Of a stretch of DNA of 64,000 nt, positions 24,738 through 51,149 are shown piece by piece. A program made the position numbers and the translations under genes. The stretch lies in assembly GCA_036505215.1 (NCBI GenBank), contig DASXTW010000085.1, forward strand, positions 656 through 64,655, given 5' to 3'. The notes below the pieces were generated by a model. That model was not told where the DNA came from and made no database searches. It saw only the letters and a program-made list of their open reading frames with translations. The number at the start of each line of letters is the position of its first letter. The stretch's first letter is position 1. This DNA comes from Actinomycetota bacterium. GTDB lineage: Bacteria > Actinomycetota > UBA4738.

Positions 24738-26516
24738 TTAGCCTCGGGAGCCAGTAGAGGCGTCGCTCGGTCGAGCCTCGAGGCCGGTGCCGAGTCGCTC
24801 CTCGAGGATCCTCCGCGCCTCCGTCGCGTCGTTTGCGCCCTCGATCGCGGCCTGGACGGCCTGGCGGCACTCCCCGCGCGTAACGCGACGCAGGGTGTCT
24901 TTTACTTCGGGGATGGCCACCCTGTTCATCGACAGCTCGTCGATGCCCAGCCCAACGAGCGCCGCGGCAACCGTCGGGTCGCCTGCGGCCTCGCCGCACA
25001 CCCCGACCCAGGCGCCGCCCGCGTGTCCTGCCTGAACCACGCCCCGGATCAAGGACAGCACGTCGGGCTCGAGCACATCGGCAATGTCGGCGACGGCGCC
25101 GATCAGCCGGTCGGCCGCGAACAGGTACTGGAGCAGGTCGTTGGTCCCGATCGACAGGAAGTCGGCATGCGCGGCGAGCCGCCCGGCGCCCAGAGCGGCG
25201 GAGGGAACCTCGACCATCACTCCAACCTCGATGTCGGCGAGGTCCATCCCCTCCTCCTCCGCAACCCGCCCGAGAGTCTCCCCCGCCTGAACGAGCTCCC
25301 GAGCGGTCGACACCAGGGGGAACATGATCGCCAGCCGCCCTGCCTCCTCGCCCGAGACCGCGGCGCTGGCCCGCAGGAGCGCGCGGAGCTGGGCCCGAAA
25401 CAGGTCGGGACGCTGGAAGCTCAGCCGAATGCCTCGGAGCCCCAGGGCAGGGTTCTCCTCGGGCTCGCGCTCGACGAACGGCAGCGGCTTGTCCGCCCCG
25501 ACGTCGAGCGTGCGGAAGACTACCCGGTTGCCCGGGAAGGCCCGAAGCACCTCCGCATAGAAGACGACCTGCTCCTCCACCGTGGGAGCGGTCGTCCGGT
25601 CCAGGAACAGGAACTCGGTGCGGACCAGGCCGCTTCCCTCCCCACCGGCCTCAACGGCCGCCGGGAGGTGCTGGATCGCGCCGATGTTCGCCGCCAACTC
25701 GACCCGGTGCCCGTCGGCCGTGTGGCCGGGCTCGTCGCGCAGGGCCACCAGTTCCTCGCGCCGCCGTTCCTCGACACCCATCCGCCGCCTGATGGCATCC
25801 CGTTCCGACGCATCGGGACCCACGACCACCCCGCCGGTCCGGCCGTCCACCGCGACGACAGCGCCCCCGCCACCGACCGCATGGAGCAGGCCCGGGCACG
25901 ACACGACCGCGGGGATTCCGAGCGCGCGGGCCAGAATCGCGGCGTGGCTGGTGGGCGATCCGGTCTCGGTGACGATGCCGGCGATCACGTCCACGGGGAT
26001 GCTCGCCGTCTGTGAAGGCGTGAGCTCGTGGGCGACGATCACCGAGCGCACGCTCGGTGCCTGGCCGGCCGTGCTCCGCCCCAGCAGGATCTTGACGACA
26101 CGGTCCCGCACGTCGTCGAGGTCGGCCGCCCGCGCAGCGAGGTACTCGCTCGCCGATGCGACCAGGAGCTCCCGGAACGTCCCGAACGCCTCGACCACTG
26201 CCCGCTCGGCGGAGGCCCCGTCCCGGATCGCCTGATCCGCCAGTCTCGCCAGCTCGGGATCGGCGGCGAACTCCGCGTGGGCCTCGAAGATCTCGGCCTC
26301 GTCTTCGCCCGCGGTCGACTCAATGGTGTGGGCGAGCTCCCGAAGTTGCTCCTCGGCGCCTTCGAGGGCCGTGCGCAGCCGGGCCGTCTCCTCTTCGGCA
26401 GTCCCGGACCGCACCTTCGGCATGTCGTCCTCGATCGGCGGCTGGGGCACGATCACGAAGGCCGGGGCGAGGGCGGCGCCGGGCGCCGCCGCTCGCCCTG
26501 TGAGCCTGGTACTCAT
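24738..26516 (-). CDS. ptsI: Phosphoenolpyruvate-protein phosphotransferase (PTS Enzyme I)
   Basis: Active-site His region (TGSPTSHAAILARALGIPAVV) and the PEP-utilising domain (SIGTNDLLQY). Confidence 0.9.
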   Translation of the reverse strand: MSTRLTGRAAAPGAALAPAFVIVPQPPIEDDMPKVRSGTAEEETARLRTALEGAEEQLRELAHTIESTAGEDEAEIFEAHAEFAADPELARLADQAIRDGASAERAVVEAFGTFRELLVASASEYLAARAADLDDVRDRVVKILLGRSTAGQAPSVRSVIVAHELTPSQTASIPVDVIAGIVTETGSPTSHAAILARALGIPAVVSCPGLLHAVGGGGAVVAVDGRTGGVVVGPDASERDAIRRRMGVEERRREELVALRDEPGHTADGHRVELAANIGAIQHLPAAVEAGGEGSGLVRTEFLFLDRTTAPTVEEQVVFYAEVLRAFPGNRVVFRTLDVGADKPLPFVEREPEENPALGLRGIRLSFQRPDLFRAQLRALLRASAAVSGEEAGRLAIMFPLVSTARELVQAGETLGRVAEEEGMDLADIEVGVMVEVPSAALGAGRLAAHADFLSIGTNDLLQYLFAADRLIGAVADIADVLEPDVLSLIRGVVQAGHAGGAWVGVCGEAAGDPTVAAALVGLGIDELSMNRVAIPEVKDTLRRVTRGECRQAVQAAIEGANDATEARRILEERLGTGLEARPSDASTGSRG

Positions 26517-26525
26517 CTTCGCCCC

Positions 26526-26801
26526 TCATCCTTCCTCTGCCTCTCCCAGCCCGGACTCGACCAGCCGGACGAGCTCGGCCAGGGTCTCGGCGGCCCCGTC
26601 GCCCTCCGTCCGGATCACGATCTCATCGCCCTGGTGGCAGTCGAGTGTCAGGACCGAAAGAACGGACTTCGCGTTGACCTCCCGCCCATCCTTCATCACT
26701 ACCACGTCGGCCGACGATGCGGCCGCGGCCTTGGCGAAGACCTTCGCCGGCCGGGCGTGGAGCCCAGTCGCGTTTCGCAGCGTCACCGTCGCCTCAGGCA
26801 C
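26526..26801 (-). CDS. ptsH: Phosphocarrier protein HPr
   Basis: 91 aa with His15 motif (GLHARPA) and the Ser46 region (AKSVLSVLTL). Confidence 0.9.
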   Translation of the reverse strand: MPEATVTLRNATGLHARPAKVFAKAAAASSADVVVMKDGREVNAKSVLSVLTLDCHQGDEIVIRTEGDGAAETLAELVRLVESGLGEAEEG

Positions 26802-28272
26802 GTGCGGGCACCCCCGCGGCCGCGGGCACCCGAGCCTGACGGTGGAAGGCCTTCAGCGCGTTGACGAGGACCCCCGTGATCACGGTGCCGACGGCGATGG
26901 CCAGGAGGTACAAGGGCCAGTGGCCGATCAGGCCGATGACCCAGATGCCTCCGTGGGGGGCTCGCAGCGTCGCGTTGAACAGGAGCGACAGCACCCCCGT
27001 CGCCGCGGAGCCGACCATCAACGAGGGGATCACGCGGAGCGGATCAGCCGCGGCGAACGGGATGGCTCCCTCCGTGATGAACGAGGCCCCCAGCAGCCAT
27101 GCAGCCTGCCCGGCCCGCTTCTCGGCCTCGTTGTACAGGCCGGGCCGGACGACGGTGGCCAGGGCCATGCCGAGCGGAGGCGTCATCCCCGCGGCCATCA
27201 CCGCGGCCATGATCTGAAGGCCGCCCGGCTTCCCCGAGGCGAGCGACAGCAGCCCGAACGAGTAGGCGACCTTGTTGACCGGCCCGCCCATGTCGAACGC
27301 CATCATGGCCCCGATCAGGATCCCCAACAGGACCTCGTTCGTCCCGGACAGGCCGTTCATCCAGTCGGAGAGGTGCCGGTTCGCCGCCGCCACGGGCTCG
27401 CCGACCACCAGCAAGATGATCAGACCGACGATCAGGGAGCCGCCGATCGGATACACCAGGATCGGCATCATCTTGCTCACGGGGCCTCTAACCGGGATCC
27501 GCTTCAGCTCATTGACGACGTACCCGGCGAGCAGACCGGCGATCAGACCGCCGAGGAAGCCGGCGCCTACGGCGCTGGCGATCAGGCCGCCCACGATGCC
27601 CGGCGCGATCCCCGGCCGGTCGGCCATGGCGTAGGCGATGAACCCGGCGAGGATGGGAACGAGCATCCCGAACGCCGTCGACCCCAGTTTGAGCAGCACG
27701 GCGCCGAGCCACACCCTGAAGGCGACGTCCACGTCCCCCGGGTACATGACCTTCCCGGCGTCGTTGATGATGGTCACCTTGGTCACGGCGACCGCACCGC
27801 CGATGGCGAAGGCGAGGGCGATGAGGATGCCCCCGGCCACTACGAACGGGATCATGTAGCTGACGCCGGTCATGAGCCACCGCCGGATCGTCTCGCCCAC
27901 GCCGGCCCCCTCGGATGTGGGCACCTCGATGGGAGACGTTGCGACGTCGACTGCTCGCGCCGGTGCCGCACTGGCCGCTGCCGCCGCCCGGTCGAGAATC
28001 TCGGCCGCCTTGTCGATGGCCTCGCGCGTCCGGACCTCGACGAATGGCAGGCCGGCGAACCGCTCTCGGTCACGGACCATGGCGTCGACGGCGAAGATCA
28101 CGGCATCGGCTCCCGCGATCACCCGCGAATCCAGCGGGGGCGCGCCCGAGGCGCCTTGCACTTCGACCTGGATCTCGTGCCCCTTGTCCCGGGCGGCGAC
28201 CTCGAGGGCCTCGGCCGCCATCTCGCTGTGGGCGATCCCGGTGGGGCAGCTGGTCACAGCGACGAACTTCAT
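26794..28272 (-). CDS. fruA: PTS fructose-specific EIIBC component
   Basis: N-terminal IIB(Fru) with the Cys site (VTSCPTGIAHS) followed by a multi-TM IIC domain. Overlaps ptsH by 8 nt. Confidence 0.9.
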   Translation of the reverse strand: MKFVAVTSCPTGIAHSEMAAEALEVAARDKGHEIQVEVQGASGAPPLDSRVIAGADAVIFAVDAMVRDRERFAGLPFVEVRTREAIDKAAEILDRAAAAASAAPARAVDVATSPIEVPTSEGAGVGETIRRWLMTGVSYMIPFVVAGGILIALAFAIGGAVAVTKVTIINDAGKVMYPGDVDVAFRVWLGAVLLKLGSTAFGMLVPILAGFIAYAMADRPGIAPGIVGGLIASAVGAGFLGGLIAGLLAGYVVNELKRIPVRGPVSKMMPILVYPIGGSLIVGLIILLVVGEPVAAANRHLSDWMNGLSGTNEVLLGILIGAMMAFDMGGPVNKVAYSFGLLSLASGKPGGLQIMAAVMAAGMTPPLGMALATVVRPGLYNEAEKRAGQAAWLLGASFITEGAIPFAAADPLRVIPSLMVGSAATGVLSLLFNATLRAPHGGIWVIGLIGHWPLYLLAIAVGTVITGVLVNALKAFHRQARVPAAAGVPARA

Positions 28273-28733
28273 AGCTCGACCTCCTTTCGGATGATGTCGT
28301 ACACGGCCTCCGGCGAGCCAGCCTCGCGGAGCGCACTTCGGAATCCCTCGTGGATCAAGCGGCGGGCCAGGCGCGAGAGGACCCGGACGTGCAGGTCGTC
28401 GGCACCTTCAGGGGCGGCGATCAGGAAGATCAGGTCGGCAGTGCTGCCGTCCTCCGCCCCGAAATCCACCCCCGCCTCGCTGTGCCCGAACGCAACCGAC
28501 GGACGGACCACGGCGGGAGACTTGGCGTGAGGAATGGCGATCCCGGACTCCATCCCGGTCCCGCCGGTCTCCTCTTCCCGCGCCCAAACGGCGTCCACGT
28601 ACGTCGGGACGTCTCTCACGCGCCCGTCCGCTTCGAGGAGCTTGGCGAGCTCCTCGATCGCGGCCCGTCGCTCTGTGGCCGCGAGACTCACCGACACGAG
28701 TGATGGGTTCGTCAGCTCCTCGATGGTCGTCAT
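28269..28733 (-). CDS. PTS fructose/mannitol-type EIIA component
   Basis: 154 aa with the EIIA type-2 active His region (GIAIPHAKS). 4-nt overlaps on both sides. Confidence 0.85.
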   Translation of the reverse strand: MTTIEELTNPSLVSVSLAATERRAAIEELAKLLEADGRVRDVPTYVDAVWAREEETGGTGMESGIAIPHAKSPAVVRPSVAFGHSEAGVDFGAEDGSTADLIFLIAAPEGADDLHVRVLSRLARRLIHEGFRSALREAGSPEAVYDIIRKEVEL

Positions 28734-29680
28734 CCGATTCTCCCCCTGTTGTCGAGAGCTCGTCCGGCGTCGATCTCCTCAACCGTGACCGCGTCAACGT
28801 CGATATCCGTCGGACCCGGCATGCCGGTGCCGGGGAGGCGAACCGCGGCGGCTCCCCACGCGACAGCTGCGCGCACAGCCTCGGCTGCCACACCGTCCGT
28901 GGCCAGGAATCCGGCCAGCGTTGCGTCGCCGGCTCCCACGGTCGACCGCGGGATGACCGGCGTCGTCCACGCTCGTGTGGCGACGGCGTCGGAGACCGAA
29001 ACGGCCCCTCTCTCTCCGAGCGAGACCAGGACATGGCCTACGCCGCGGTCGAGGAGTCCGCGCGCGCCTTCCACGACGTCGCGCAGAGTGTGGATAGGCT
29101 TGCCCACGGCCTCGGCCAGCTCGTCGGCGTTGGGTTTCATGAGATCCGGGCGCATATCGATCGATTCGGTGAGAGCGGTTCCCGAGGCGTCCACCGCGAC
29201 GCGAACGCCCACCGCGTGGAGCTTCATCACGAGGCTCCCGTACAGGTCCTCTGGGACACCGGGCGGTAGCGCACCGCACAGCGCCACCCAATCTGCGCCC
29301 CGGCTGGCTTCAACCGTGGCTTCGACCAGCTCCGCCACTTCCTGCGACGTGAGCCTGGGGCCAGGAGCGTTCAGCTTCGTCACCGTTCCGTCTGGCTCGA
29401 CGATGGTCACGTTCTCGCGGATCGGCTCGGCGATCTGCACCGGCACCACGTCGAGGCCCCGGCTCGACAGGAGGTCCAACAGCTGATCTCCTTCACGGCC
29501 GCCCGTCGGGAGGACGGCTCGAGCGGAGATGCCGTTGGCGATCAAAGCCCGGGCGACGTTCACTCCTTTGCCGCCGGGATGCACGCGGGCCGCTGTGGCT
29601 CGAACGACCTCGCCCCGCTCCAGCGCAGGAATCTCCAGAGTCCGGTCAACGGATGGGTTCGCCGTGAGGGTGACTATCAC
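28730..29680 (-). CDS. fruK: 1-phosphofructokinase (PfkB family)
   Basis: PfkB motifs (HPGGKGVNVA, GAGD). Confidence 0.85.
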   Translation of the reverse strand: MIVTLTANPSVDRTLEIPALERGEVVRATAARVHPGGKGVNVARALIANGISARAVLPTGGREGDQLLDLLSSRGLDVVPVQIAEPIRENVTIVEPDGTVTKLNAPGPRLTSQEVAELVEATVEASRGADWVALCGALPPGVPEDLYGSLVMKLHAVGVRVAVDASGTALTESIDMRPDLMKPNADELAEAVGKPIHTLRDVVEGARGLLDRGVGHVLVSLGERGAVSVSDAVATRAWTTPVIPRSTVGAGDATLAGFLATDGVAAEAVRAAVAWGAAAVRLPGTGMPGPTDIDVDAVTVEEIDAGRALDNRGRIG

Positions 29681-29801
29681 GACAGCACCACCTCCACCCC
29701 AACACCTCGAAGCCTACGCCGATCGGCCGGTGACAAGGGCGCGCCTTTCACCAGCGGGTCGACCTCTTCGATGGCATCACTTGTGCCGCTGAGCGTCCCG
29801 A

Positions 29802-30560
29802 TCACGCCAGGACCACCTCCACCCCGGCCTCCTCGAGCGCCTGCCGGTCGGACGGGCCCAGGCCCGCGTCGGTGACCAGCGCATCGACCTCCTCGATCGA
29901 CGCGAAGCGCACGGCGTCCTCTTCGCCCACCTTGGTGTGGTCGGCGATCACGACGACCTGCTGCGCCGCCCGGCACATCGATCGCTTCACCGCCGCCTCG
30001 CTGGGGTCGGGTGTCGAAAGGCCACGCTCGAGGGTCAGCCCATTGGTCCCGATGAACGCCACGTCCACCCGCAGGTCGGCCAGCTCGCGCAGCGCCCAGT
30101 CGTCGACGTGGGCGAGGGTGCGTCCGCGGACGCGGCCTCCGATCACGTACAGCTGGAGGTTTCGTCGAGCGGCCAGCTCCAGCCCCACGGGCAGAGAATT
30201 CGTGAAGACCGTGAGCTCACGGTCGGGAAATACCTGGGCTAGCGCGAGGGTCGTCGTCCCCGCGTCCAGGAGCACCGTGCCGCGGTCGGGCACGAACGAG
30301 AGCGCGGCGGATGCTATCCGGCCCTTCTCACTCGCCATCGACGCGGCCTTCTCGGCGATCGCCGGCTCCGCCCGGAAACGCTCGGTGGGGATGGCTCCCC
30401 CGTGGACGCGACGAAGGACGTTACGGCGCTCCAGGTCCGTCAGGTCTCGCCGGATGGTCTCCGGGGTCACTTCGAACCGGTTTGCGAGTTCCAAGACGTC
30501 GCCCCGACCGTTCTGCCGGACCAGCACGGCGATCTCTTGGCGTCTCTCCTCCCCGTACAT
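29802..30560 (-). CDS. DeoR family transcriptional regulator (FruR-like)
   Basis: N-terminal DeoR HTH (ELANRFEVTPETIRRDL) and a DeoR C-terminal sugar-binding domain. Confidence 0.85.
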   Translation of the reverse strand: MYGEERRQEIAVLVRQNGRGDVLELANRFEVTPETIRRDLTDLERRNVLRRVHGGAIPTERFRAEPAIAEKAASMASEKGRIASAALSFVPDRGTVLLDAGTTTLALAQVFPDRELTVFTNSLPVGLELAARRNLQLYVIGGRVRGRTLAHVDDWALRELADLRVDVAFIGTNGLTLERGLSTPDPSEAAVKRSMCRAAQQVVVIADHTKVGEEDAVRFASIEEVDALVTDAGLGPSDRQALEEAGVEVVLA

Positions 30561-30970
30561 GCCACCTCCGAGTCTGCCCGGTTAGTTCCGAGTCCGTGGG
30601 ATTCTGCCCGATTGCCCGCCTCGTTGTCAAGGCCCAGACAGAAACAAAAGTCGAAGCCCCCCTCGACGGACGAGGCCAGGCCCCGAGACGACGGGACAGG
30701 CCCGGGGCAAAGGCTCAGAGGAACCGGCCGTCGTTCGACTGTAGCTGGACGTTTGAAACCAAGCCGAACTGGGTACCCGCCTCGCACCTTATCGGTGGGG
30801 GACATGTGCGGGTTCGGGGAGTTGCGACCCCTGGTTCAGGGACGATCGGCGATCGAGAGGGGGCTCCAAACGGCGGGCGTTCCCCGCTCGGAGTCGTCGG
30901 TGATTTCCGTGCGGACCCGACGGCTCAGGCCCGTGGCGTCGCGCATCTTTCGTCTGAAGCGCTCGCCACG

Positions 30971-32674
30971 GTGGTCCTCTTCGACGAGCACCTGAGCCAC
31001 TGCGCCACCACGGCGGATGTGATCTCGGCCGCGGTGGGGCCCGGTCTCGAAGCCTTCGGGGCAAAGGCTGCGGTTATCGGATTGACCGACTTCCGGCTCC
31101 GCCTCGAGCCCGTCGTCGGCAGTCCGGGGATCGAGGGCTTCGCTGCCCGATGCGCCGAACTTGCCCTGGACGCGCCGCTGCCGATCACCGAGACCATCCG
31201 CACCGGCAGGCCGGTCGGCCAGCGACCCCTTGCGGATGGCCTCATGGGAGAAGGATCCCCGACCGATCTCGGAGCGGTTCGCGAGTGTACCCTCCCTATC
31301 CTCGGCACTCGGGGAGTTGTTGGAGCCCTCTGGCTCTTCCTCGGTCCGGACGACCCGCCGATTGACGATGCGCTTCTGCCCGTTCTGATCGGCCGGCTGG
31401 GTGCGGCCATCGACAGAGCCCGCATACTGGAGTCGGAGCGGCGGATGCGCGCTCGGGCCGAGTGGTCTGCGGCCAGGTTGTCGCGACTGCAATCGCTGAC
31501 TTCGGGTCTTTCGGCGGCGCTCGGCCCTGTGGACGTCGCCGACGTGGTCATGACCCATGCCCTCGCCGAGCTTGGCGCGACCGGAGGCACGTGCTACATG
31601 CTGGCCGAGGACCGAACCCTGCGGCCGGTGCGCTCCATCGGGGACGAGAGGGCGTCCACCAACGCGATCTCGATTACGAACGACGACCCACTGGGGACGA
31701 TCCTCAAGCGGAGCGTGGTGGTCGTCCTTCCGCCCGAGTCCGCCGCCTCTGCCGGACGCGATGACGGCAGTCTCAAGGCAGTCGTTCCGCTCGCGATCAG
31801 AGGCGAGGTCCTCGGCGCCATCGAGTTGATCTTCCCCCGAGACAAGGATCTGGACGGAGACCTCCGGTCGTTCCTGGCCGCTCTTGGGACCCAGTGCGCC
31901 CAGGCCGTCGAGCGTGCGCGCTTGTACGCCCAGCGCGCGAGGGAGGCTCATGTGTTGCAGGCCTCCCTGATGCCACCTGCCCTCCCCAGCATCCCCGGGC
32001 TCGATATCGCCGCGGCGTACCGTCCGTTCGGAGATGGAACCGTCGTTGGCGGGGACTTCTATGACGTCTATGCCCTCGGAGAAGGCCGATGGGGCCTCGT
32101 GGTCGGTGACGTGTCCGGCAAGGGAATCGAAGCGGCCGCGATCACGGCCCTCGCGCGCCACACGACTCGGGCCGCGGCGCTTCTTGGTATGGGGCCCGCC
32201 GACGTCTTGCAGACCTTGAATCGAGTGATGCTCTCGGAGCCCCTCGGCGAACGCTTCTGCACGATCGTCCACGGCATCCTCGAGCCGTCCGCGGAGGGTG
32301 TTGCCGTCACGCTGAGTCTCGGCGGGCATCCACGTCCGCTCCTGCTGGATCGACGGAAGGGAACCGTGCGCGCGGTGGGAAGACCTGGCACCGCTGTAGG
32401 AGTGCTGGCCGATCCCACGCTGCTCGAAACGCGCCTGACGCTGCACAGCGGAGACGTCCTCGTCTTCTTCACCGACGGGTGCGTCGACTTCCATGCCGAG
32501 GGCCGGACCACGTCCGACGAGACCGTGCTGCTCGGCGTGCTTCGCGAGCACGCCGAGGAAGATGCCGGCCAACTCACGAAACGTCTCGAAGATGAGGTCT
32601 TGAATTCGAAGGGAGGACCGAGCGCGGACGACGTCGCGTTGCTCGTCATGCGAGCGCGGAACGATGAACCCTAG
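30971..32674 (+). CDS. GAF-domain PP2C serine phosphatase (SpoIIE/RsbU family)
   Basis: PP2C motifs ([22 protein letters not shown]) at the C-terminus and a GAF-like N-terminus. The longer ORF overlaps the divergent DeoR gene, so an in-frame GTG at 30971 is proposed and the start is uncertain. Confidence 0.7.
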
Positions 32675-32731
32675 CCGCTCCACGCAACGGCGCGCTGTCC
32701 GTATGGAGGTTCGGGAACGAAGGGGGGACCG

Positions 32732-35700
32732 ATGAAGGCTCGTGCCAGAGGCACGGAAGAAGGATCGCCGCGCGCGCCGGCGAAGAAGCGGGCCGCCCGA
32801 CCTGCGTCGAAGAACGGCCACAGCGAAGACGGCGACCTCGTGCTCCAAGAGCTGCTCGATGCGCTCGTCGAGCTCAAGCGGGGCGACTTCCGCGTGCGAC
32901 TGCCCGCCCGACGCTCGGGTCTGCCGGGCAGGATCGGGGGGGCGTTCAACGATTGCGTGGAACTGATCGATGGGACGACGCGAGAGATCGACAGGGTGTC
33001 CAGGCTGGTGGGTCGCGAAGGCCGCGTGTCGGAGCGAATCGTCCTGACCGGGGCCGAGGGGACCTGGGCGGCCCGAGCAGCCGCGATGAACGGGCTCATC
33101 GACGATCTGATCCGCCCGATGACGGAGATCGCCCGGGTGATCGAGGCCGTTGCGCTCGGCGATCTCTCCCAGAGGGTGGCGCTCAGCATCCACGGGAGAC
33201 CGATCAGGGGCGAGTATCTACGGATCGGGAAGGCCGTCAACGCCATGGTCGACCAGCTCTCCTCGTTCGGCGCCGAGGTCAGCCGCGTGGCGAAGGAAGT
33301 TGGTACGGATGGCAAGCTCGGCGGCCAGGCGAAGGTCAGAGGCCTCTCCGGCAGGTGGAAGGACCTGACCGACAACGTCAACCTGATGGCCTCCAACCTC
33401 ACTGCCCAGGTGCGCGACATCGCTCGGGTCGCCACGGCCGTGGCGAGGGGGGACCTTTCCCAAAAGATCACCGTCGACGTCAAGGGCGAGATCGTCGAGC
33501 TGAAGAACACCATCAACACAATGGTCGACCAGCTCTCCTCGTTCGCCGACGAGGTGACGCGCGTCGCGCGCGAGGTGGGCACCGAGGGGAAGCTCGGGGG
33601 TCAGGCCAACGTGAAGGGCGTGTCGGGCACGTGGAGAGACCTCACGGACAGCGTCAACCTCATGGCGTCGAACCTGACGAGTCAGGTCCGGAACATCGCG
33701 CAGGTAGCGAGCGCGGTCGCCCGGGGGGATCTGTCCCAGAAGATCACCGTCGGAGCCGAGGGGGAGGTCGCCGCGCTTGCCGACACCATCAACTCGATGA
33801 CCGACACGCTGCGCGTCTTCGGCGACGAAGTCACGCGCGTTCGCGCGCGAGGTCGGTACCGAGGGCAGGCTTGGTGGACAGGCCGAAGTCCCCGGGGTCG
33901 CGGGGACGTGGAAGGACCTGACCGAGAGCGTGAACTCTATGGCCTTCAACCTCACCGCCCAGGTCCGCAACATCGCCCAGGTGGCAACGGCGGTCGCCAA
34001 GGGCGATCTTTCGCAGAAGATCACGGTCGACGTCCGCGGCGAGATCCTCGAGCTGAAGGACACCATCAACACGATGGTGGATCAGCTTTCATCGTTTGCG
34101 GACGAGGTCACCCGAGTCGCTCGCGAGGTGGGCACCGAGGGGAACCTCGGCGGCCAGGCGCAGGTGAAGGGCGTCTCAGGAACGTGGAAAGACTTGACCG
34201 ACAACGTCAACTTCATGGCGTCCAACCTGACCAGTCAGGTGCGCGACATCGCGCGGGTGACGACCGCGGTGGCCAAGGGCGACCTCTCGCAGAAGATCAC
34301 CGTGGACGTCAAGGGCGAGATCCTCGAGCTCAAGGACACCATCAACACGATGGTCGACCAGTTGAGGTCGTTCGCCGATGAGGTGACGCGCGTCGCGCGC
34401 GAGGTCGGAACGGAGGGCAGGCTGGGTGGCCAGGCTGAGGTATTCGGTGTCTCGGGAACATGGAAGGGCCTGACCGACAGCGTGAACTTCATGGCCTCGA
34501 ACCTGACCGACCAGGTGTGGAACATCGCCCAGGTGGCCACGGCCGTCGCTCGTGGCGACCTGTCGCAGAAGATCACGGTCGATGTCCGCGGCGAGATCCT
34601 CGAGCTGAAAGACACCATCAACACGATGGTGGATCAGCTTCGAGCGTTCGCCGACGAGGTCACCCGCGTCGCGCGCGAGGTGGGGACCGAAGGCAAGCTG
34701 GGGGGTCAGGCGGAGGTGTTGGGCGTCGCAGGCACGTGGAAGGACCTCACCGACAACGTCAACTTCATGGCGTCCAACCTGACCAGCCAGGTGCGCGACA
34801 TCGCACGGGTGACGACCGCGGTGGCCAAGGGCGACCTCTCGCAGAAGATCACCGTCGACGTCCGGGGCGAGATCCTCGAGCTCAAGAACACCATCAACAC
34901 CATGGTGGACCAGCTCTCCTCGTTCGCCGACGAGGTCACCCGCGTGGCGCGCGAAGTGGGCACCGAAGGCAAGCTCGGGGGCCAGGCACAGGTCCCCGGT
35001 GTCGGGGGCACCTGGAAGGGCCTCACGGAGAATGTGAATTCCATGGCGTCGAACCTGACGGGCCAGGTGCGGACATCGCCCAGGTCACCACGGCGGTTGC
35101 CCGTGGCGACCTGTCGCACAAGATCACCGTGGACGTCAAGGGGGAGATCCTGGAGCTCAAGAACACCATCAACACCATGGTGGACCAGCTCTCCTCCTTC
35201 GCCGACGAGGTGACTCGGGTCGCCCGCGAGGTGGGGACCGAGGGAAAGCTCGGCGGCCAGGCCCACGTACCCGGCGTATCGGGGACGTGGAAGGACCTGA
35301 CCGACAACGTGAACTCCATGGCCGGAAACCTGACCGCGCAGGTCCGGAACATCGCTCAGGTGGCGACGGCCGTCGCTCGCGGGGATCTGTCGCAGAAGGT
35401 CACGGTCGATGTACGAGGGGAGATCCTGGAGCTGAAAGACACGATCAACACCATGGTCGATCAGCTCTCCTCATTCGCCGACGAGGTCACCCGGGTGGCG
35501 CACGAGGTGGGGACGGAGGGGAAGCTCGGCGGGCAGGCCGAGGTCGAGGACGTCTCTGGTACCTGGCGCCATCTGACCGAGAGCGTCAACCAGCTTGCCC
35601 AGAACCTGACGACTCAGGTCCGAGCGATCGCCGACGTGGCAACTGCCGTTACCCAGGGCGACCTCACGCGTAGCATCGACGTGGAGGCCCGGGGGGAAGT

Positions 35701-37819
35701 CTCGGAGCTCAGGAACAACATCAACTACATGATCCGCAACCTTCGTGAGACCACACAGAAGAGCGCGGAGCAGGACTGGCTCAAGACGAACCTCGCCCGG
35801 ATCTCCCGTTTGATGCAAGGACAGCGAGACCTGCGGGAGCTCTCCCAATTGATCATGTCCGAGGTCACCCCGGTGGTGTCCGCGCAACATGGCGCGTTCT
35901 TCATGGCCGGTGCCGAGGGGAGCGACCTCGAGCTGAGACTGATCGCCTCGTACGCGTACAAGTCCCGGAAGAAAGCGTCCAACCAGTTTCGTCTGGGCGA
36001 GGGTCTCGTCGGCCAGGCGGCAGTCGAAAAGAAGCCAATACTGGTAACCGATCCCCCCGAGGGCTACATCCGGGTTTCCTCCGGCATCGGGGAAGGACGG
36101 CCCGCCGCGATCGTCGTGCTCCCAGTCGTCTTCGAAGAACAGGTCCTGGCCGTCATCGAGCTCGCCTCGTTCAAGCCGTTCACGGAAGCCAGCTTGATGT
36201 TCCTCGAACAGCTGGTCGAGACGATCGGTGTCGTTCTCAACGGCGTTATTGCGAACATGCGAACCGAGGAGCTGCTCGCCGAGTCCCAGCGACTGGCCCA
36301 GGAGCTCCAGAGCCAATCCATGGAGCTGCAGCACGGACAGGAGAGGCTGCGGCAGACGAACGCGGAGCTCGAGGAGAAGGCACGCCAGTTGGAGGAGCAG
36401 AACCGCAGCATCGAGCTCAAGAACCGCGAGATCGAGATCGCGAGAAAGGGCTTGGAAGAGAAGGCGCGGCAGCTTGCTCTGGCCTCCAAGTACAAGTCCG
36501 AATTCCTCGCGAACATGTCCCACGAGCTGCGCACTCCTCTCAACAGCCTGATGGTCCTCGCGCAGCTCCTCGCTTCGAATCCCGATGGCACTCTCTCTTC
36601 CCGGCAGGTGGAGTTCGCCGACACGATCTACGATGCGGGGAAGGATCTTCTTGGCTTGATCAACGACATCTTGGACCTGAGTAAGGTCGAGGCCGGACGG
36701 CTCGACATCACCCCCGCCGACGTGGCGGTCGCCGACATCCGCGAGTCGATCGAGCAGGGATTCCGGCCACTCGCCGAGCAAAAGGGGCTCTCCCTCGACG
36801 TATCAATCGGAGCGGAGTGTCCGCCCTCCTTCGAAACCGATCTGCAACGGCTTCAGCAGATCCTGAACAACCTGCTGTCCAACGCGGTCAAGTTCACCAA
36901 CGAAGGCGGTGTTACCGTTCGGATCGATCGAGCACCGGACGCCCTCGGCTACTCCACCTCTCAGCTCGAAAAAGCTGGAACCGTCCTCGCCTTCACGGTC
37001 AGCGACACGGGGATCGGGATCGCCCCGGACCAGCTCGATGCGATCTTCGAAGCGTTCCGCCAGGCGGACGGGACCGCCAGCCGCCGCTTCGGAGGCACCG
37101 GCCTCGGTCTGTCCATCAGCCGGGAGGTGGCGCGCCTGCTCGGCGGAGAGATCCGCGTCGAGAGCAGCGTCGATGAAGGCAGCATGTTCACGCTGTACCT
37201 CCCACGGAGCTACGTTCCAGTCGAGCCTGCGAGCCGCGAGACAGCGCGCCCCTCTCTGCACGAGCAGGACAAGGCCGCGTCGATCGAAGCACGCGACGGG
37301 CGCAGCCGCGAACTGCCAGAGCAGTCGGAGCCATTGAGCGTCGTCCTCTTCGAGCCGCAGCCGAGCGACGGGCAAGATCTCGCAGATTTCCTTCGAGCGC
37401 GGAACGGCATGCCGCTCACCACCGGAGGCGGGAAGGAGGAGCTGCTGGCCGGGAAGCAGGTCCTCATCGTCGACGATGACATCCGGAACGTCTTCGCACT
37501 CACGAACGCGCTCGAAAGCCAGGGCTCGACCGTGCTGTTCGCGGAGAACGGCCGCGAGGCGCTGGATGTCCTGTATCGCAACCCCGAGATCGACCTCGTC
37601 TTGATGGACATCATGATGCCCGACATGGACGGGTACGAGACGACGAGGACGATCCGGAGCACCCCTCAGTTCGCGGAGCTCCCGATCATCGCAGTCACGG
37701 CCAAGGCCATGAAAGGGGACCGCGAAAAGACATTGGCCGCGGGGGCCACCGACTACATCGCCAAGCCCCTGGACGTGGACGAGCTGCTGGCCAAGGTTCG
37801 GGCCCGTCTGCTCGGATAA
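32732..37819 (+). CDS. Giant hybrid sensor histidine kinase: poly-HAMP array (nine or ten 92-aa units), GAF, coiled coil, HisKA, HATPase and C-terminal REC. The reading frame is interrupted by two compensating frameshifts (+1 near 33840, -1 near 35073)
   Basis: Three overlapping ORFs (32732..34381, 33930..35213, 34460..37819) all encode the same repeat in the correct frame once joined. The repeat is [92 protein letters not shown]. H-box ([10 protein letters not shown]), ATPase motifs (GGTGLGLSI) and REC motifs (VLIVDDD ... [13 protein letters not shown]) are present. Confidence 0.8.
33110..35770 (+). repeat. Tandem 276-bp (92-codon) coding repeats, about 9.5 units; units starting at 33386, 33662, 33939, 34215, 34491, 34767, 35043 and 35318 are near-identical
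   Basis: The ATG of each MASNLT unit recurs at 276 +/-1 nt spacing. The 277 and 275 nt spacings coincide with the two frameshifts. Confidence 0.9.
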
Positions 37820-37822
37820 CCG

Positions 37823-38974
37823 ATGGCGACCATCCTGCTGGTCGATGATCGAGCCGAGAATCTGCGCGCGCTCGAGGCCGTGCTCGAACCTCTCGGACAC
37901 ACCCTGCTCAGGGCGCAGTCTGCCGACGAGGCGCTCGCGTGCCTCCTGAGGGAGGAGGTCGCTCTCATCCTCCTCGACGTGATGATGCCGGGGCTCGACG
38001 GATTCGAGACAGCAGAGCTCATCAAGCAGAGAGAGAGAACCCGCGACATCCCGATCATTTTCCTGACGGCCATCAACCAGGCCATCGAACATCACCTCAG
38101 GGGATACGAAGTGGGCGCAGTGGATTACATCAACAAGCCATTCGACGCCCACATCCTCCGCTCGAAGGTATCCGTGTTCCTCGATCTCAACGAGAAGCGC
38201 GACCTGTTGCGGGCGCAGACCGAAGAGCTCCGGAAACGGCTGAACGAGCGGGACCGAGCGCAGCGCGCGCTGGTGCGCCGGACCGCCGAGCTGGCGCGAT
38301 CCAACAGGGAGCTCGACCAGTTGGTTCAGATCGCCTCTCACGACATCCGTGAGCCACTTGACACCATGGCGGGATTCCTCGAGATCATCGCTCAGGAATC
38401 CGCCCGTTCGGCCGGGGACGATGTCCGGCTCCTGCTCACCCGGGCAATCGCCCAGGTCGAGCGCATGCGCGACGCGATCGACAAACTGGTCGGGTCGGCG
38501 AGCTCTGGCCAGGGGCTCGAAGCGAGCGAGGTCGTGGCTTTCGACAAGGTCCTCGACCAGGCGCTCGACGATCTCGAGAGCCCATTGGCGGAGAACGGCG
38601 CGCGCGTCGTCCGATCGCCACTCCCAGCCGTACGCGGAGACTTCTGGCAGCTCGTCGAGTTGGTCGAGGTCCTGATCGAACACGCCCTCAAGCTTCGAGG
38701 GGACGAAGCTCCCGAAGTGCGAATCCACGCGAGTGAAGGCTCGACGGAGCATCTGATCTCGATCGGCAACAACGGGGTTGCGATCGACCCGCGTGATGCC
38801 GCTCGGCGCTTCACCGTGTTCGCCACGATGGGCTCCCCGTCCGGTGGGATCCTCGACGTCGGTCTGGTCACGTGCCGCAGGATCATCGAGCGGCACGGTG
38901 GGCGAATCTGGCTCGAATCTCAGCCGGGAAGCGGATCCACGGTCTTCTTCACGCTTCCCCCAGCCGAGCACTGA
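37823..38974 (+). CDS. Hybrid REC-histidine kinase (receiver, HisKA, HATPase)
   Basis: REC motifs (ILLVDD ... ILLDVMMPGLDG), H-box (SHDIREPL) and an ATPase C-terminus. Starts 4 nt after the poly-HAMP kinase stop. Confidence 0.85.
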   Translation: MATILLVDDRAENLRALEAVLEPLGHTLLRAQSADEALACLLREEVALILLDVMMPGLDGFETAELIKQRERTRDIPIIFLTAINQAIEHHLRGYEVGAVDYINKPFDAHILRSKVSVFLDLNEKRDLLRAQTEELRKRLNERDRAQRALVRRTAELARSNRELDQLVQIASHDIREPLDTMAGFLEIIAQESARSAGDDVRLLLTRAIAQVERMRDAIDKLVGSASSGQGLEASEVVAFDKVLDQALDDLESPLAENGARVVRSPLPAVRGDFWQLVELVEVLIEHALKLRGDEAPEVRIHASEGSTEHLISIGNNGVAIDPRDAARRFTVFATMGSPSGGILDVGLVTCRRIIERHGGRIWLESQPGSGSTVFFTLPPAEH

Positions 38975-39735
38975 TGTTCACCCTCCTGGTGGTCGACGAC
39001 GATGCAGATTCCCGGTTGCTCGTTGCCCACGCGCTCAGGGGATCGGAGACGTTCCAGATCATCGGCGAGGCGGCGGGGGCCGAAGATGCCGTTTCCCTGG
39101 CCTCATCGTGGCATCCCGACATCGTGATGTTGGATCCGGTGCTGGTGGGAGCAGACGGCCTGTGGGCGCTGCCCCGCGTCCGCGAAGCTGCTCCGGGAAC
39201 GAAGGTCGTGCTCCATTCATCGTTCCCATCATCAGAGCTTCGATTTGCCGCCTTGTCCGGGGGAGCCGTCGGATATCTCGAGAAGAGTCGCCCCCGACTG
39301 ACCCTCGGCGACGACCTGCTTGCCGTGTGCGGTCTGCTCGATGTCGTCGAGGCTGGGATCAACGAGGCAAAGGCGCGCCTTGGTCCGAACCTCCAGACGC
39401 CACGCCTGGCGAGACGCTTCGTCAAGCAAGCGCTCGATCGATGGGGAGTGAGGAGCGAGGTCGAGCTGGTCGAGCTCCTCGTGAGCGAACTCGTCACCAA
39501 CTCCATCGTCCACGCCCGGTCCGACGTGGAAGTCTCCGTTACCGTTGCTTCGGACCTCGTACGCGTGGCCGTGTTCGATTCCAGCCTCGAACCGCCGATC
39601 CGTAGGGCGGTACGACCAGACGGGGCATCGGGTCGTGGCCTCCTCATGCTCGACGCGCTCTGTTCAGCCTGGGGAAGCGACGTCACGCCCGGGGGGAAGA
39701 GCGTGTGGTTCGAGATCAAGAACGAATTCCGCTGA
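38974..39735 (+). CDS. Receiver (REC) domain fused to an RsbW-like GHKL ATPase/serine kinase domain
   Basis: REC motifs (LLVVDDD ... IVMLD) and a C-terminal anti-sigma-factor-type HATPase_c (ELVTNSIVHA ... GRGLLMLDAL). The start overlaps the upstream stop in a TGATG junction. Confidence 0.7.
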   Translation: MFTLLVVDDDADSRLLVAHALRGSETFQIIGEAAGAEDAVSLASSWHPDIVMLDPVLVGADGLWALPRVREAAPGTKVVLHSSFPSSELRFAALSGGAVGYLEKSRPRLTLGDDLLAVCGLLDVVEAGINEAKARLGPNLQTPRLARRFVKQALDRWGVRSEVELVELLVSELVTNSIVHARSDVEVSVTVASDLVRVAVFDSSLEPPIRRAVRPDGASGRGLLMLDALCSAWGSDVTPGGKSVWFEIKNEFR

Positions 39736-39771: not shown

Positions 39772-40959
39772 ATGGCCCAGCTCAAAGCCAGTGAACGGGC
39801 GAGCCTCCCCGACAGCGCCTTCGCCTACGTCGACTCTCGAGGCCGGCGACGGCTGCCGATCCACGACGAGTCTCACGTGCGGAACGCGCTCGCTCGGTTC
39901 AATCAGGTCTCCTTCGAAGATGATGCGGCCCGGGAGCGCGCCCGCAAGCGGCTGCTGAACGCCGCGAAAAGGTACGGGATCGTGCCCGTGGGGTTCATCG
40001 ACGGGCAGCTCCGATCGGAGCGCAGGCACGCAGCGGCCGGCCGCCTGGTGATCGAGCTCGGTCGGATGGGCGCACCCGGCGAGCTCGAGCAGCAACTGCG
40101 AAGCGCGCTGCGGGATCCCACCCTTGCCGTTCTGCACTGGTCGGAAGCGGCCGGGTCGTACCTGGACGGCGCGGGCAAGCCGGTCCCGCTGCCTGCTGAT
40201 CAGGAGCAGCGGGTGGTGACCTATCTCGAGCGCCAGGGCCGGCCGATGACCGCGATCGTGCACGATCCGGCCGTCCTCGACGATCCGGATCTCACCGAGA
40301 CCGTGCTTGCCGCTGTGCGCTTCGTCATCGAGAAAGACCGGCTCCACGGCCAGGTCCAGGCCCGATCGACCAATGCCGCGACGCTCCCCACCGGCTTCGT
40401 CACCTTCCTGTTGACCGACATCGAGGGCTCCACGGCTCTTCTCAGGCAGCTGGGCGACCGCTACGCGGGCCTGCTGAACGACGTCCGCAGGATCGTTCGG
40501 CAGGCCGTGCTGCGGGCCGGAGGCCGCGCGGTCGATGCCCACGCCGACGAGTTCTTCGCGGTCTTCGAGCGCGTGGTCCCTGCCATCGAGGCGGCCATCT
40601 CCATCCAGCGCACGATGAGCGAGCGGACCTGGCCCGACGATCTGCAATGCCGGGTCCGTGCCGGAATCCACAGCGGCAGTCCCACCCTGACCGACACCGG
40701 GTACATCGGCCTGCCCGTCCACACGGCAGCTCGGGTCTGCTGGGCGGCCCACGGCGGCCAGATCGTCGTCTCCGGCGAGACCAAAAGAGCGGTCGAGGGA
40801 TCCGTGCCGGCCGGCGTCCGCTTCCGAAGCCTCGGCCGACATCGCTTCCCCGGGCTGACTCAGCCGGAAGCGCTCTTCCAGGTCGAGGCCGACGGACTCC
40901 TCGCCGACTTCCCGCCTCTACGGATGGGAGCCGCCTCCTCCACCGAGCCACGCCGTTAG
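39772..40959 (+). CDS. Class III adenylate/guanylate cyclase with an N-terminal domain of unknown function
   Basis: C-terminal cyclase catalytic motifs (FVTFLLTDIEGSTAL, GIHSGSPT, HTAARV). Confidence 0.8.
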   Translation: MAQLKASERASLPDSAFAYVDSRGRRRLPIHDESHVRNALARFNQVSFEDDAARERARKRLLNAAKRYGIVPVGFIDGQLRSERRHAAAGRLVIELGRMGAPGELEQQLRSALRDPTLAVLHWSEAAGSYLDGAGKPVPLPADQEQRVVTYLERQGRPMTAIVHDPAVLDDPDLTETVLAAVRFVIEKDRLHGQVQARSTNAATLPTGFVTFLLTDIEGSTALLRQLGDRYAGLLNDVRRIVRQAVLRAGGRAVDAHADEFFAVFERVVPAIEAAISIQRTMSERTWPDDLQCRVRAGIHSGSPTLTDTGYIGLPVHTAARVCWAAHGGQIVVSGETKRAVEGSVPAGVRFRSLGRHRFPGLTQPEALFQVEADGLLADFPPLRMGAASSTEPRR

Positions 40960-48610: not shown

Positions 48611-48704
48611 GCTTAGGAAATTGGGCCTTTCGGTAGCCGAAATAAGGCCGAAAGTCCCTAATCCCCCGGCCTCCGAATGTCGATATGCGCTTCAAAGGAG
48701 GCCT

Positions 48705-50486
48705 ATGCGAGAGCATGCGCGCATCCTCCGGGCCATTCTGGGGATGCGGAGAGAAAACGGGTTCACGGTGCTCGAAACCGTCGTGGCGCTGGGGGTCATC
48801 CTCGCCGCAATGCTGACTCTCGCGTACACGGCGAACGTCGGCTTCTCCGACGCCGCCTACGCGCGTCAGCGCCAAACGGCCTCCGGGCTCGCCAACGAGA
48901 CGCTCGAACAGATCCGAGCCCTTCCCTTCGACACCTTGAAGCAGGGGTTGAGCAACTTCGACAGCCTCGGCAGTGACCCCAACATCCAAGTGGTTGGGCC
49001 CGACTATTTCTTCACGGGGGTCACCCCGAACGAGAAGATCGCCCGCGGGGACATCCCGCTCGCCCCACCCGTGGTGCCGCTGGTTCCCCACATCCAGAAC
49101 ACGAACGTGGGGACCGCCGCGACGTACAAGATCAGCTCGTACGTGACCTATTTCAACAACGTGCAAACCGCGAATACCTATAGGGTCTCGGTGATCGTCA
49201 CCTGGACGAACACTGCCCGGAAGGGCATCGCCAAGGTACAGGCGCAGAGCATCTTCTTCTCCGGCTCCGGGTGCCTGTCCACCTCCACGCACCCATTCGC
49301 CGCTCCGTGCCAACCCTTCCTCTTCGCCAATGCCTCGGGCGACGAAGGGGACATCTCGTTCACGGGGAACGTGGACGACCTCGCCATCGATGGGGCCCAC
49401 CTGCGGCTCGGAGGCGTGACCTCGAACATGCAGATCGAGCAGATCTCCGCCGTCCAGGGCACGACGGAGACGTCCGGGGTGAGCCTCGCCGTCAACGGGC
49501 AGGCCGAGACTGACACCGGTAATCAGGGCGTCACCTCGGGGGCCGACAACGACCCGGCCCCTCCCAACTCGGAGTTCAGCTCGACGTCAACGCCCGCGCA
49601 GGGAAGCAACACCCTGACAGGGACCGCCGGCGGCGGGAGCTTCTTCTCTGTGACCTCGAGCGCCGGCGACACGGGAACCACGACCAGCACGAGTTCGGCC
49701 TCGGTCAGTCCGCCGAACCCCTGCAGTGACTCGGTGGGGACGCCCCAAACGGACTCTCTGCCGTGCGGCGCGTCCAAGGCGAAGCAGGGGGGCACCGAAT
49801 CCGCCTTTGCTTTTCTCCGGCGTTCGGGCCGGGACCTCGGCACGACCTCGTTCGCCTCGGTAGACGCCTCTCCAGAGGATCTGTACGCCTTCACCAACCG
49901 AGCCGGCGCTCCCGAGTTCTCCTACTGCCCGGCCACGTCCGGTGAAGGTTGCGTCCACGCCGACGTCACCAGGACGTGGGGCGCCGTCTCGTTAGGAGGT
50001 CTTCCGGACATCTTCGCCGGCGCCTCGTTGCCGCCGGGATGGACCGGATATCTGCTGACGGGGTCGAACCTGAAGACGACCGCCTCCGCGGAGGCCGGCG
50101 TGGGCTCGGCGGCTCCGAGCGTCAAAGTCCAGGGCACCGTTTCGTACTACAACGGGCTGGGTTACACGCCACTCCCGCTGGTGGTCGGAGCGCCCGTGCC
50201 GATCCCCATTCCGCCAGTGCACGCCGAGCAGCTCGTGGGCGGCAAGCTCTTCGCGGTCGACGTCACCGCCAGCTTGACGACCGGGGGAACGCAGATCCTC
50301 GATCCGGCCGGATGCGCGCCGCCCTGCGTCCACAACGATGCGTCCGCCGTCGCCGAATCGCCCATCGTTGGCCAGATCACCTACGTGTTCTCGTACGAAG
50401 GGTCGACCTTCGTCAGCCTGACCATGAAGGTGAACCTCGGCGTGGTCCGCGCCAAGGGTACCTACAAGCCCGCCCCCAGTGGATAA
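48705..50486 (+). CDS. Large type IV pilin-like protein (593 aa) with a prepilin-type N-terminal cleavage/methylation signal
   Basis: Class III signal (RRENG|FTVLETVVALGVILAAMLTL) with Gly at -1 and Glu at +5. Ser/Thr/Gly-rich C-terminal domain. Strong RBS (AAAGGAGG) upstream of the ATG at 48705; an alternative ATG lies at 48741. Confidence 0.65.
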   Translation: MREHARILRAILGMRRENGFTVLETVVALGVILAAMLTLAYTANVGFSDAAYARQRQTASGLANETLEQIRALPFDTLKQGLSNFDSLGSDPNIQVVGPDYFFTGVTPNEKIARGDIPLAPPVVPLVPHIQNTNVGTAATYKISSYVTYFNNVQTANTYRVSVIVTWTNTARKGIAKVQAQSIFFSGSGCLSTSTHPFAAPCQPFLFANASGDEGDISFTGNVDDLAIDGAHLRLGGVTSNMQIEQISAVQGTTETSGVSLAVNGQAETDTGNQGVTSGADNDPAPPNSEFSSTSTPAQGSNTLTGTAGGGSFFSVTSSAGDTGTTTSTSSASVSPPNPCSDSVGTPQTDSLPCGASKAKQGGTESAFAFLRRSGRDLGTTSFASVDASPEDLYAFTNRAGAPEFSYCPATSGEGCVHADVTRTWGAVSLGGLPDIFAGASLPPGWTGYLLTGSNLKTTASAEAGVGSAAPSVKVQGTVSYYNGLGYTPLPLVVGAPVPIPIPPVHAEQLVGGKLFAVDVTASLTTGGTQILDPAGCAPPCVHNDASAVAESPIVGQITYVFSYEGSTFVSLTMKVNLGVVRAKGTYKPAPSG

Positions 50487-51138
50487 GCTGCTCAGGCTCC
50501 GCCGGCTCCGGTCCGAAGAGGGCATGACCCTCGTGGAGCTGACCGTGAGCATGTCGATGATGGCCGTCGTGGCGGTCATTTTCCTGACCGCGCTCGCCTC
50601 GGTGCAGCGCGGAGTCGAGCGTCAGACGGATCGCACGACGACCAACGACCAGGTGAGGCTGGCCATCGATCAGCTCGACCACGAGATCCGGTCGGGCAAC
50701 CTCCTGTACGACCCTCAGAACGAGGCTGACCCGGATCCCAGCCACGAGGTGGTGCCCTACATGTCGCTTCGCATCTACACGCAGGCGAACGCCGACATCC
50801 GGAACCCGGGCAACCAGTGCGTGCAGTGGCGGATCACCGACATTGGCGAGCTACAGAGCAGGCGCTGGGCGACCAACTGGCGGGATGACCCCCCGAACTT
50901 GGTCACGAACTTCAGAATCGTGGCCGAGAACGTGGTGAACCGGGATCCGACCGTCAACGTGCGGGCCTTCACGCTCGATCCCGATCCCGCCAAGGGAGGC
51001 CGGACGATCGTGGTGAGCCTGGTGGTGAACAGCAACTCGAAGTCTGGTCAGAACGTGACGATCCGGCAGTCGGTGACCGGCCGGAACACCGAGTACGGAT
51101 ATCCCAGCAACGTGTGCGCGGACATCCCGCCGTACTGA
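50479..51138 (+). CDS. Type IV pilin-like / pseudopilin protein (219 aa)
   Basis: Prepilin-type signal (SEEG|MTLVELTVSMSMMAVVAVIFL). Overlaps the upstream gene by 8 nt. Confidence 0.65.
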   Translation: MDKLLRLRRLRSEEGMTLVELTVSMSMMAVVAVIFLTALASVQRGVERQTDRTTTNDQVRLAIDQLDHEIRSGNLLYDPQNEADPDPSHEVVPYMSLRIYTQANADIRNPGNQCVQWRITDIGELQSRRWATNWRDDPPNLVTNFRIVAENVVNRDPTVNVRAFTLDPDPAKGGRTIVVSLVVNSNSKSGQNVTIRQSVTGRNTEYGYPSNVCADIPPY

Positions 51139-51149
51139 AAGGGACTGCA

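Follow-up and report, generated by a model that had tools for sequence, protein, structure and literature searches.

A family of soluble poly-HAMP kinases, to which the structures 9trk and 9trj belong, has been described for Myxococcus AskA (PMC13446029). The locus considered here is a 5.1-kb gene within the window, by which we mean the whole 64,000-nucleotide stretch of actinobacterial DNA that was analyzed (G+C content 66.7%). It resembles AskA of Myxococcus xanthus (class III-like; Protein Sci 2026, PMC13446029) in its alternating canonical and divergent HAMP domains and its 92-aa di-HAMP units, and AskA-type soluble poly-HAMP kinases more broadly in that the array leads into a histidine kinase core, with no transmembrane segment noted. 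By description, not by sequence, it can also be likened to the fungal group III hybrid histidine kinases (Nik1/Os-1/TcsC), in which paired HAMP repeats precede HisKA, HATPase_c, and receiver domains (PMC13446029; PMC11253588). When a two-unit segment of the array was compared with the PDB, it matched the solved poly-HAMP kinase segments 9trk_A (E = 1.4e-87) and 9trj_A (E = 6e-41). Pfam recognizes nine HAMP (PF00672) and nine HAMP_2 (PF18947) stretches (~18 HAMP domains) in the predicted protein once two bases are corrected, together with GAF, HisKA, HATPase_c, and Response_reg domains. Judged from its sequence, the locus is a known kind of gene, predicted to encode a soluble poly-HAMP hybrid histidine kinase. 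Its features and those of its immediate neighbors are as follows.

30971..32674, + strand: upstream GAF-SpoIIE (RsbU-like PP2C) phosphatase, identical to HEY3209145.1 (Pfam)
32732..37819, + strand: disrupted poly-HAMP hybrid histidine kinase gene, 5.1 kb, 1695 aa after two-base correction
32732..34381, + strand: ORF 1, 549 aa; 369-370 native residues (N-terminal region and first HAMP units), then ~180 out-of-frame residues to the stop at 34379-34381
33237..35556, + strand: tandem array of 276-nt (92-aa, di-HAMP) units; 8.4 copies with 77% matches in Tandem Repeats Finder
33840..33841, + strand: site 1, TT where one T is expected (+1), in the context ACGCGCG-TT-CGCGCGCG; HAMP frame changes from 2 to 0
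33930..35213, + strand: ORF 2, 427 aa (stop-to-stop 33801-35213); ~4.5 di-HAMP units in frame 0 and an out-of-frame tail past 35072
34379-34381 and 34436-34438, + strand: two frame-2 stop codons between the indels (three-frame translation, ORF list), which bar read-through
34460..37819, + strand: ORF 3, 1119 aa; ~204 out-of-frame residues, then the last HAMP units, GAF, kinase core, and receiver
35072..35073, + strand: site 2, G/A junction with one A missing (-1), GGTGCGG^ACATC and not GGTGCGGAACATC; HAMP frame changes from 0 to 2
35822..36238, + strand: GAF domain (Pfam; residues 1031-1169 of the corrected protein)
36494..37207, + strand: kinase core, with HisKA at 36494-36697 (residues 1255-1322) and HATPase_c at 36839-37207 (residues 1370-1492; Pfam)
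37460..37801, + strand: C-terminal receiver, Response_reg (Pfam; residues 1577-1690)
37823-38974, + strand: downstream REC-HisKA-HATPase_c protein, HEY3209146.1 (Pfam)
38974-39735, + strand: downstream REC-HATPase_c_2 (RsbW-like) protein, HEY3209147.1 (Pfam)

Three-frame translation places the HAMP sequence in frame 2 as far as ...FGDEVTRV (33839), in frame 0 from AREVGTEG... to ...NLTGQVR (35072), and in frame 2 again to the stop at 37819. GC3 phase flips at both of these places (33840/33841 and 35072/35073), and the QVRxIA motifs of the array are spaced at 276 nt except for a single 277-nt step over site 1 and a single 275-nt step over site 2. Once one T is taken out and one A put in, in silico, the result is an ORF of 5088 nt, or 1695 codons, with 0 internal stops. 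The initial annotation had reported an extra T and a missing A, a HAMP sequence running from frame 2 to 0 and back to 2 through three overlapping ORFs, and a clean repeat protein when these are joined. All of this holds: the two bases are confirmed by translation, by comparison with other units and orthologues, and by the 276-nt spacing; the frame switches by three-frame translation, the ORF list, and GC3 phase; and the repeat protein by the corrected 1695-codon ORF without an internal stop.

The same annotation leaned on the exact compensation of the two indels, which stands as arithmetic, for length only. As an argument it is weak, because chance alone makes about half of all pairs of +/-1 indels cancel and the shifted frame contains two stop codons. 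Since these frame-2 stops (34379-34381 and 34436-34438) fall between the two sites, the protein is not rescued by the indel pair. A continuous translatable reading frame is absent from the poly-HAMP gene of the window and present in its orthologues.

Those orthologues come from two routes. A scan of genome collections with the unique C-terminal half as query gave two metagenome-assembled genomes (MAGs) at 82% identity, and the contigs L105 and L106 were reached via the neighboring phosphatase. The gene is intact in L004 (1399 aa) and L106 (1401 aa), and in L105 it stays in one frame for at least 1263 aa, to the contig end; all three, from three related species, keep an exact 92-aa period with no stops. 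The check for an uninterrupted frame in orthologues, proposed in the initial annotation, thus returned a single frame in each. QVRxIA motifs number nine in the window, eight in L105, and six each in L004 and L106, and in these relatives their spacing is exactly 276 nt throughout. The number of di-HAMP units therefore varies among orthologues at 82-85% identity (window 33237-35556; L004 3861-8060; L105 8211-11999; L106 3930-8135). The array units share only 70-87% of their DNA sequence in a pairwise identity matrix and ~90% of their protein sequence, which indicates that the array alters its length without homogenization.

Selection on the segment between the two sites can be read from the comparison with L105. 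Taken in the HAMP frame, its dN/dS is 0.04 (408 codons, dS 0.59), the strongest constraint anywhere in the gene, so the disruption is very recent and the segment coded for a working sequence until then. The suggestion of a very recent event is accordingly upheld by the flawless corrected ORF, this low dN/dS, and the intact orthologues. Other decay in the gene is absent, except perhaps for two substitutions described below, and the same pattern is expected of an artefact. Protein-level searches added little: a search with ORF 1 was dominated by poly-HAMP proteins with multiple repeats, of which many are labeled partial at contig ends; one with the unique N-terminus found no same-species match, the best being at 60% identity; and exact look-ups of the three ORF products and of HEY3209145 gave no match. 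The literature, searched for the sample and run identifiers, yielded no match.

The evidence differs between the two sites. At site 2 the window reads CAGGTGCGGACATCGC, where other units read CGCGACATC (n = 3), CGGAACATC (n = 2), CGCAACATC (n = 1), or TGGAACATC (n = 1), and the relatives L003 and L004 both retain the A (CGGAACATC/GGAACATC in each). The exact downstream protein was found on two JGI metagenome contigs. One contig, L002 (JGI, sample 3300036864), aligns to window 34997-39043 without a gap and with a single mismatch, and it lacks the same A, although site 2 lies only ~76 nt from its end. The missing A is thus present in two assemblies, the window and L002. L002 is an independent assembly that may share reads with the window, and so is not certainly an independent sample; third-party-annotation (TPA) MAGs are re-assemblies of public runs. 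Because a separately assembled contig lacks this same A, the reads almost certainly carry the site 2 deletion, and on this sequence comparison it is very probably real.

At site 1 the window reads ACGCGCGTTCGCGCGCGAGG, and the other units, the orthologues L004, L105, and L106, and the same-species contig L103 read ...CG(C/G)GT(C/G)GCGCGCGAGG, one base shorter. The site falls within the most divergent unit of the array. Aligned over it, L004 shows a single one-base gap, at the extra T. L103 (JGI, sample 3300036860), reached via the phosphatase, matches window 24749-34571 at 99.9% identity, and the sole gap in these 9.8 kb is again the extra T; there are 12 substitutions besides, with a divergent last 55 nt set aside, and the gene call on L103 runs for 613 codons across site 1 without a stop. 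One assembly, that of the window, therefore carries the extra T, and its sister contig lacks it. Two Logan contigs, L107 (SRR11743100, 100% identical to window 27844-33384) and L108 (SRR11742948, 3 SNPs), end at 33384, short of site 1. In a metagenome scan, a degenerate pattern with a gap of 1-2 bases across site 1 had no match, and the conserved 26-mer adjoining the site hit 20 loci, all of them unrelated poly-HAMP genes (FAEQVT... units) and 0 with an extra base. Taken together, the alignments lean somewhat toward the extra T being a real private mutation, the alternative being a consensus error. Template switching at the quasi-palindrome CGCGCG-T-CGCGCG was considered as a source of the T and rejected by inspection, as a TT center gives no better palindrome.

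Contig ends within the array bear their own description. L103 ends at ~34571, before site 2, and L002 starts at 34997, past site 1. Short-read contigs of this and related species repeatedly break inside the poly-HAMP array (the end of L104, the ends of L107 and L108 at 33384, the end of L103, and the start of L002 at 34997), even though the window array has no exact repeat of at least 55 nt. These breaks probably trace to strain variants or further poly-HAMP genes within the same metagenome graphs. At the end of L103, 55 nt (9768-9822, window ~34518-34571) differ from the window at 9 positions, and their best unit match in the window or the orthologues is 47/55; either a chimeric end of the contig or a variant unit of the L103 haplotype could account for this stretch.

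Same-species contigs also speak to the population from which the window derives. Across five of them (L001, L002, L103, L107, and L108; ~24 kb compared) the only indel is the extra T, and with a single indel in that comparison the window contig is not generally indel-prone. A single SNP in 4 kb separates L002 from the window, and L103 and L001 differ from the window by ~0.13%, which places the deletion-bearing contigs in the haplotype group of the window. SNP sharing among L103, L108, and the window points to several haplotypes in the population. Two derived, non-synonymous changes mark the window haplotype: R to W at 34518 (TGG), at the QVRxIA position, which is R in all other units and in the orthologues, and P to L at 32838, near the N-terminus, where L103, L108, and L004 have P. 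Relaxed constraint would be consistent with both, in numbers too small to weigh. Domain matches are full-length for the other window genes that were checked. Two hits in this gene and none in the other checked parts of the window would be expected if selection had relaxed once a first hit inactivated the gene, and one real hit plus one error would also look like this.

We favor the reading that a poly-HAMP hybrid kinase gene has been inactivated very recently in this uncultured soil actinobacterium population, and from the sequence comparisons we put its probability at roughly 0.78. A narrower form of it, with somewhat less than an even chance, has both indels real and linked on one haplotype, a doubly hit pseudogene, with the sister haplotype represented by L103 intact. 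The single SNP between the window and L002, set against ~0.13% for L103 and L001, would fit such a haplotype, as would the SNP sharing among L103, L108, and the window and the derived changes at 32838 and 34518, the latter at an otherwise invariant repeat position. The site 1 insertion, however, is seen in one assembly only, L103 stops before site 2, and the 1.8 kb of the gene that L103 and the window have in common differ by one indel and one substitution, an indel share that is high for real divergence. That both indels are sequencing or assembly errors, with the gene intact in cells, is unlikely. It would account for the lack of the extra T in L103, for a perfect corrected ORF whose middle segment has a dN/dS of 0.04, and for one-base length changes in very short homopolymers at both sites, and L002 could come from the window's own reads; yet exactly the same site 2 deletion turns up in a contig assembled by another pipeline, the array holds no exact repeat of at least 55 nt (the longest is 50 nt), and the same-species comparison of ~24 kb shows one indel difference. 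Consensus-level one-base indels are also rare in short-read assemblies, the presumed platform of the window MAG. The initial annotation's preference for an artefact is thus contradicted at site 2, by the same missing A in another assembly, and at site 1 could go either way, given an L103 without the extra T. Its more specific idea of an error within a repeat is weak, and repeat misassembly unlikely, because the units are only 70-87% identical and share no exact repeat of that length. Junctions of an inserted or duplicated block were rejected as a cause, since the orthologues align continuously over both sites with a single-base gap.

Readings in which the frameshifts serve the cell fare worse. 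It is quite improbable that the split is tolerated and the pieces work separately, for example as an internally initiated HAMP-GAF-kinase-REC protein from frame 2 past 35073: the kinase half is intact and in-frame ATGs follow site 2 (e.g., at 35177 in TINTMVDQL), but no orthologue has such a split and selection has had too little time to shape one since the event. Programmed ribosomal frameshifting, transcriptional slippage, or reversible phase variation of the sensor would be in keeping with a site 1 that is polymorphic between near-identical contigs and with a net frame that is kept; we regard them as scarcely credible, since site 2 (GTG CGG ACA TCG) has no X XXY YYZ heptamer, site 1 (GTT CGC GCG) lacks a stop, a rare or stall codon, and a Shine-Dalgarno-like stimulator, and all orthologues encode the protein in one frame, no relative being frameshifted at either site. 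Slippage-type phase variation, which had been offered as a possibility, is not supported, as the tracts change from T1 to T2 and from A2 to A1, with no A or T run and no simple-sequence tract. Highly speculative, too, is the thought that array indels segregating among near-identical haplotypes (site 1 with or without the T at 99.9% identity) might serve the population as a switch that turns a cytoplasmic sensor kinase on and off or tunes its length, a kinase-bearing product being partly restored by the second indel.

Loss of a single A from GGAACATC at 35072/35073 ends the HAMP frame and separates the GAF-kinase-receiver part from the N-terminal part. Under the favored reading of recent inactivation, the T added at 33840, in the window contig only, would be either a second mutation tolerated in an already dead gene or a consensus error, and the opposite signs of the two indels would be coincidence. 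The product may now be at most a truncated N-terminal poly-HAMP fragment, perhaps with an internally initiated kinase fragment, and the conserved downstream phosphorelay genes would be left without their top sensor.

Those genes belong to a conserved four-gene signaling cluster (window 30971-39735) that consists of the phosphatase, the poly-HAMP kinase, and the two REC proteins, in an order kept in L004 and L106. HEY3209145.1, HEY3209146.1, and HEY3209147.1, which belong to a TPA MAG, are encoded exactly by the window and numbered in sequence. The flanking accessions HEY3209145 and HEY3209146 are consecutive, and no NCBI protein is deposited for the 5.1-kb gene between them, from which we infer that NCBI annotation treated the interval as a pseudogene. 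Three further loci of the window are recorded for completeness. After the cluster, at 39772-40959, lies a DUF6582 protein whose C-terminal half resembles a nucleotide cyclase by eye (FLLTDIEGST), without a Pfam report at E <= 1e-5. At 48700-52547, three consecutive genes on the + strand have pilin-like hydrophobic N-termini (FTVLETVVALGV, MTLVELTVSM, and FAMITAILVSLVV) and low first-position G+C, and they are probably a pseudopilin or type IV pilus minor pilin set. A large GGDEF - 2x GAF - HD-GYP (HD_5) protein is encoded at 15720-18611 and would be predicted to make and break cyclic di-GMP in one polypeptide.

The biological weight of the finding is small: one strain has lost, or in assembly seems to have lost, the top sensor of a phosphatase/kinase/anti-sigma-like cluster. 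Its value is rather as a worked case in which sibling metagenome contigs separate a real indel from a consensus error, and as a reminder that "compensating" frameshifts in a repeat gene need imply neither an artefact nor a mechanism.

Set against the described systems, the gene departs from AskA in having a GAF domain between array and kinase, in its place within an actinobacterial cluster of RsbU-like phosphatase and REC-kinase genes, and in its two frameshifts; Nik1/Os-1/TcsC differ from it in being eukaryotic and usually having 5-6 HAMP repeats. As a disrupted gene it is, on sequence evidence, best described as an ordinary, very recent pseudogene, possibly with one consensus error added, and it calls for no new mechanism. 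As in the ordinary frameshifted bacterial pseudogenes flagged by NCBI, its indels are of one base and fall in short homopolymers, the ORF is otherwise intact, as are the orthologues, and no protein is deposited. Unlike those pseudogenes, it carries two indels of opposite sign in one repeat-rich gene; nothing else differs.
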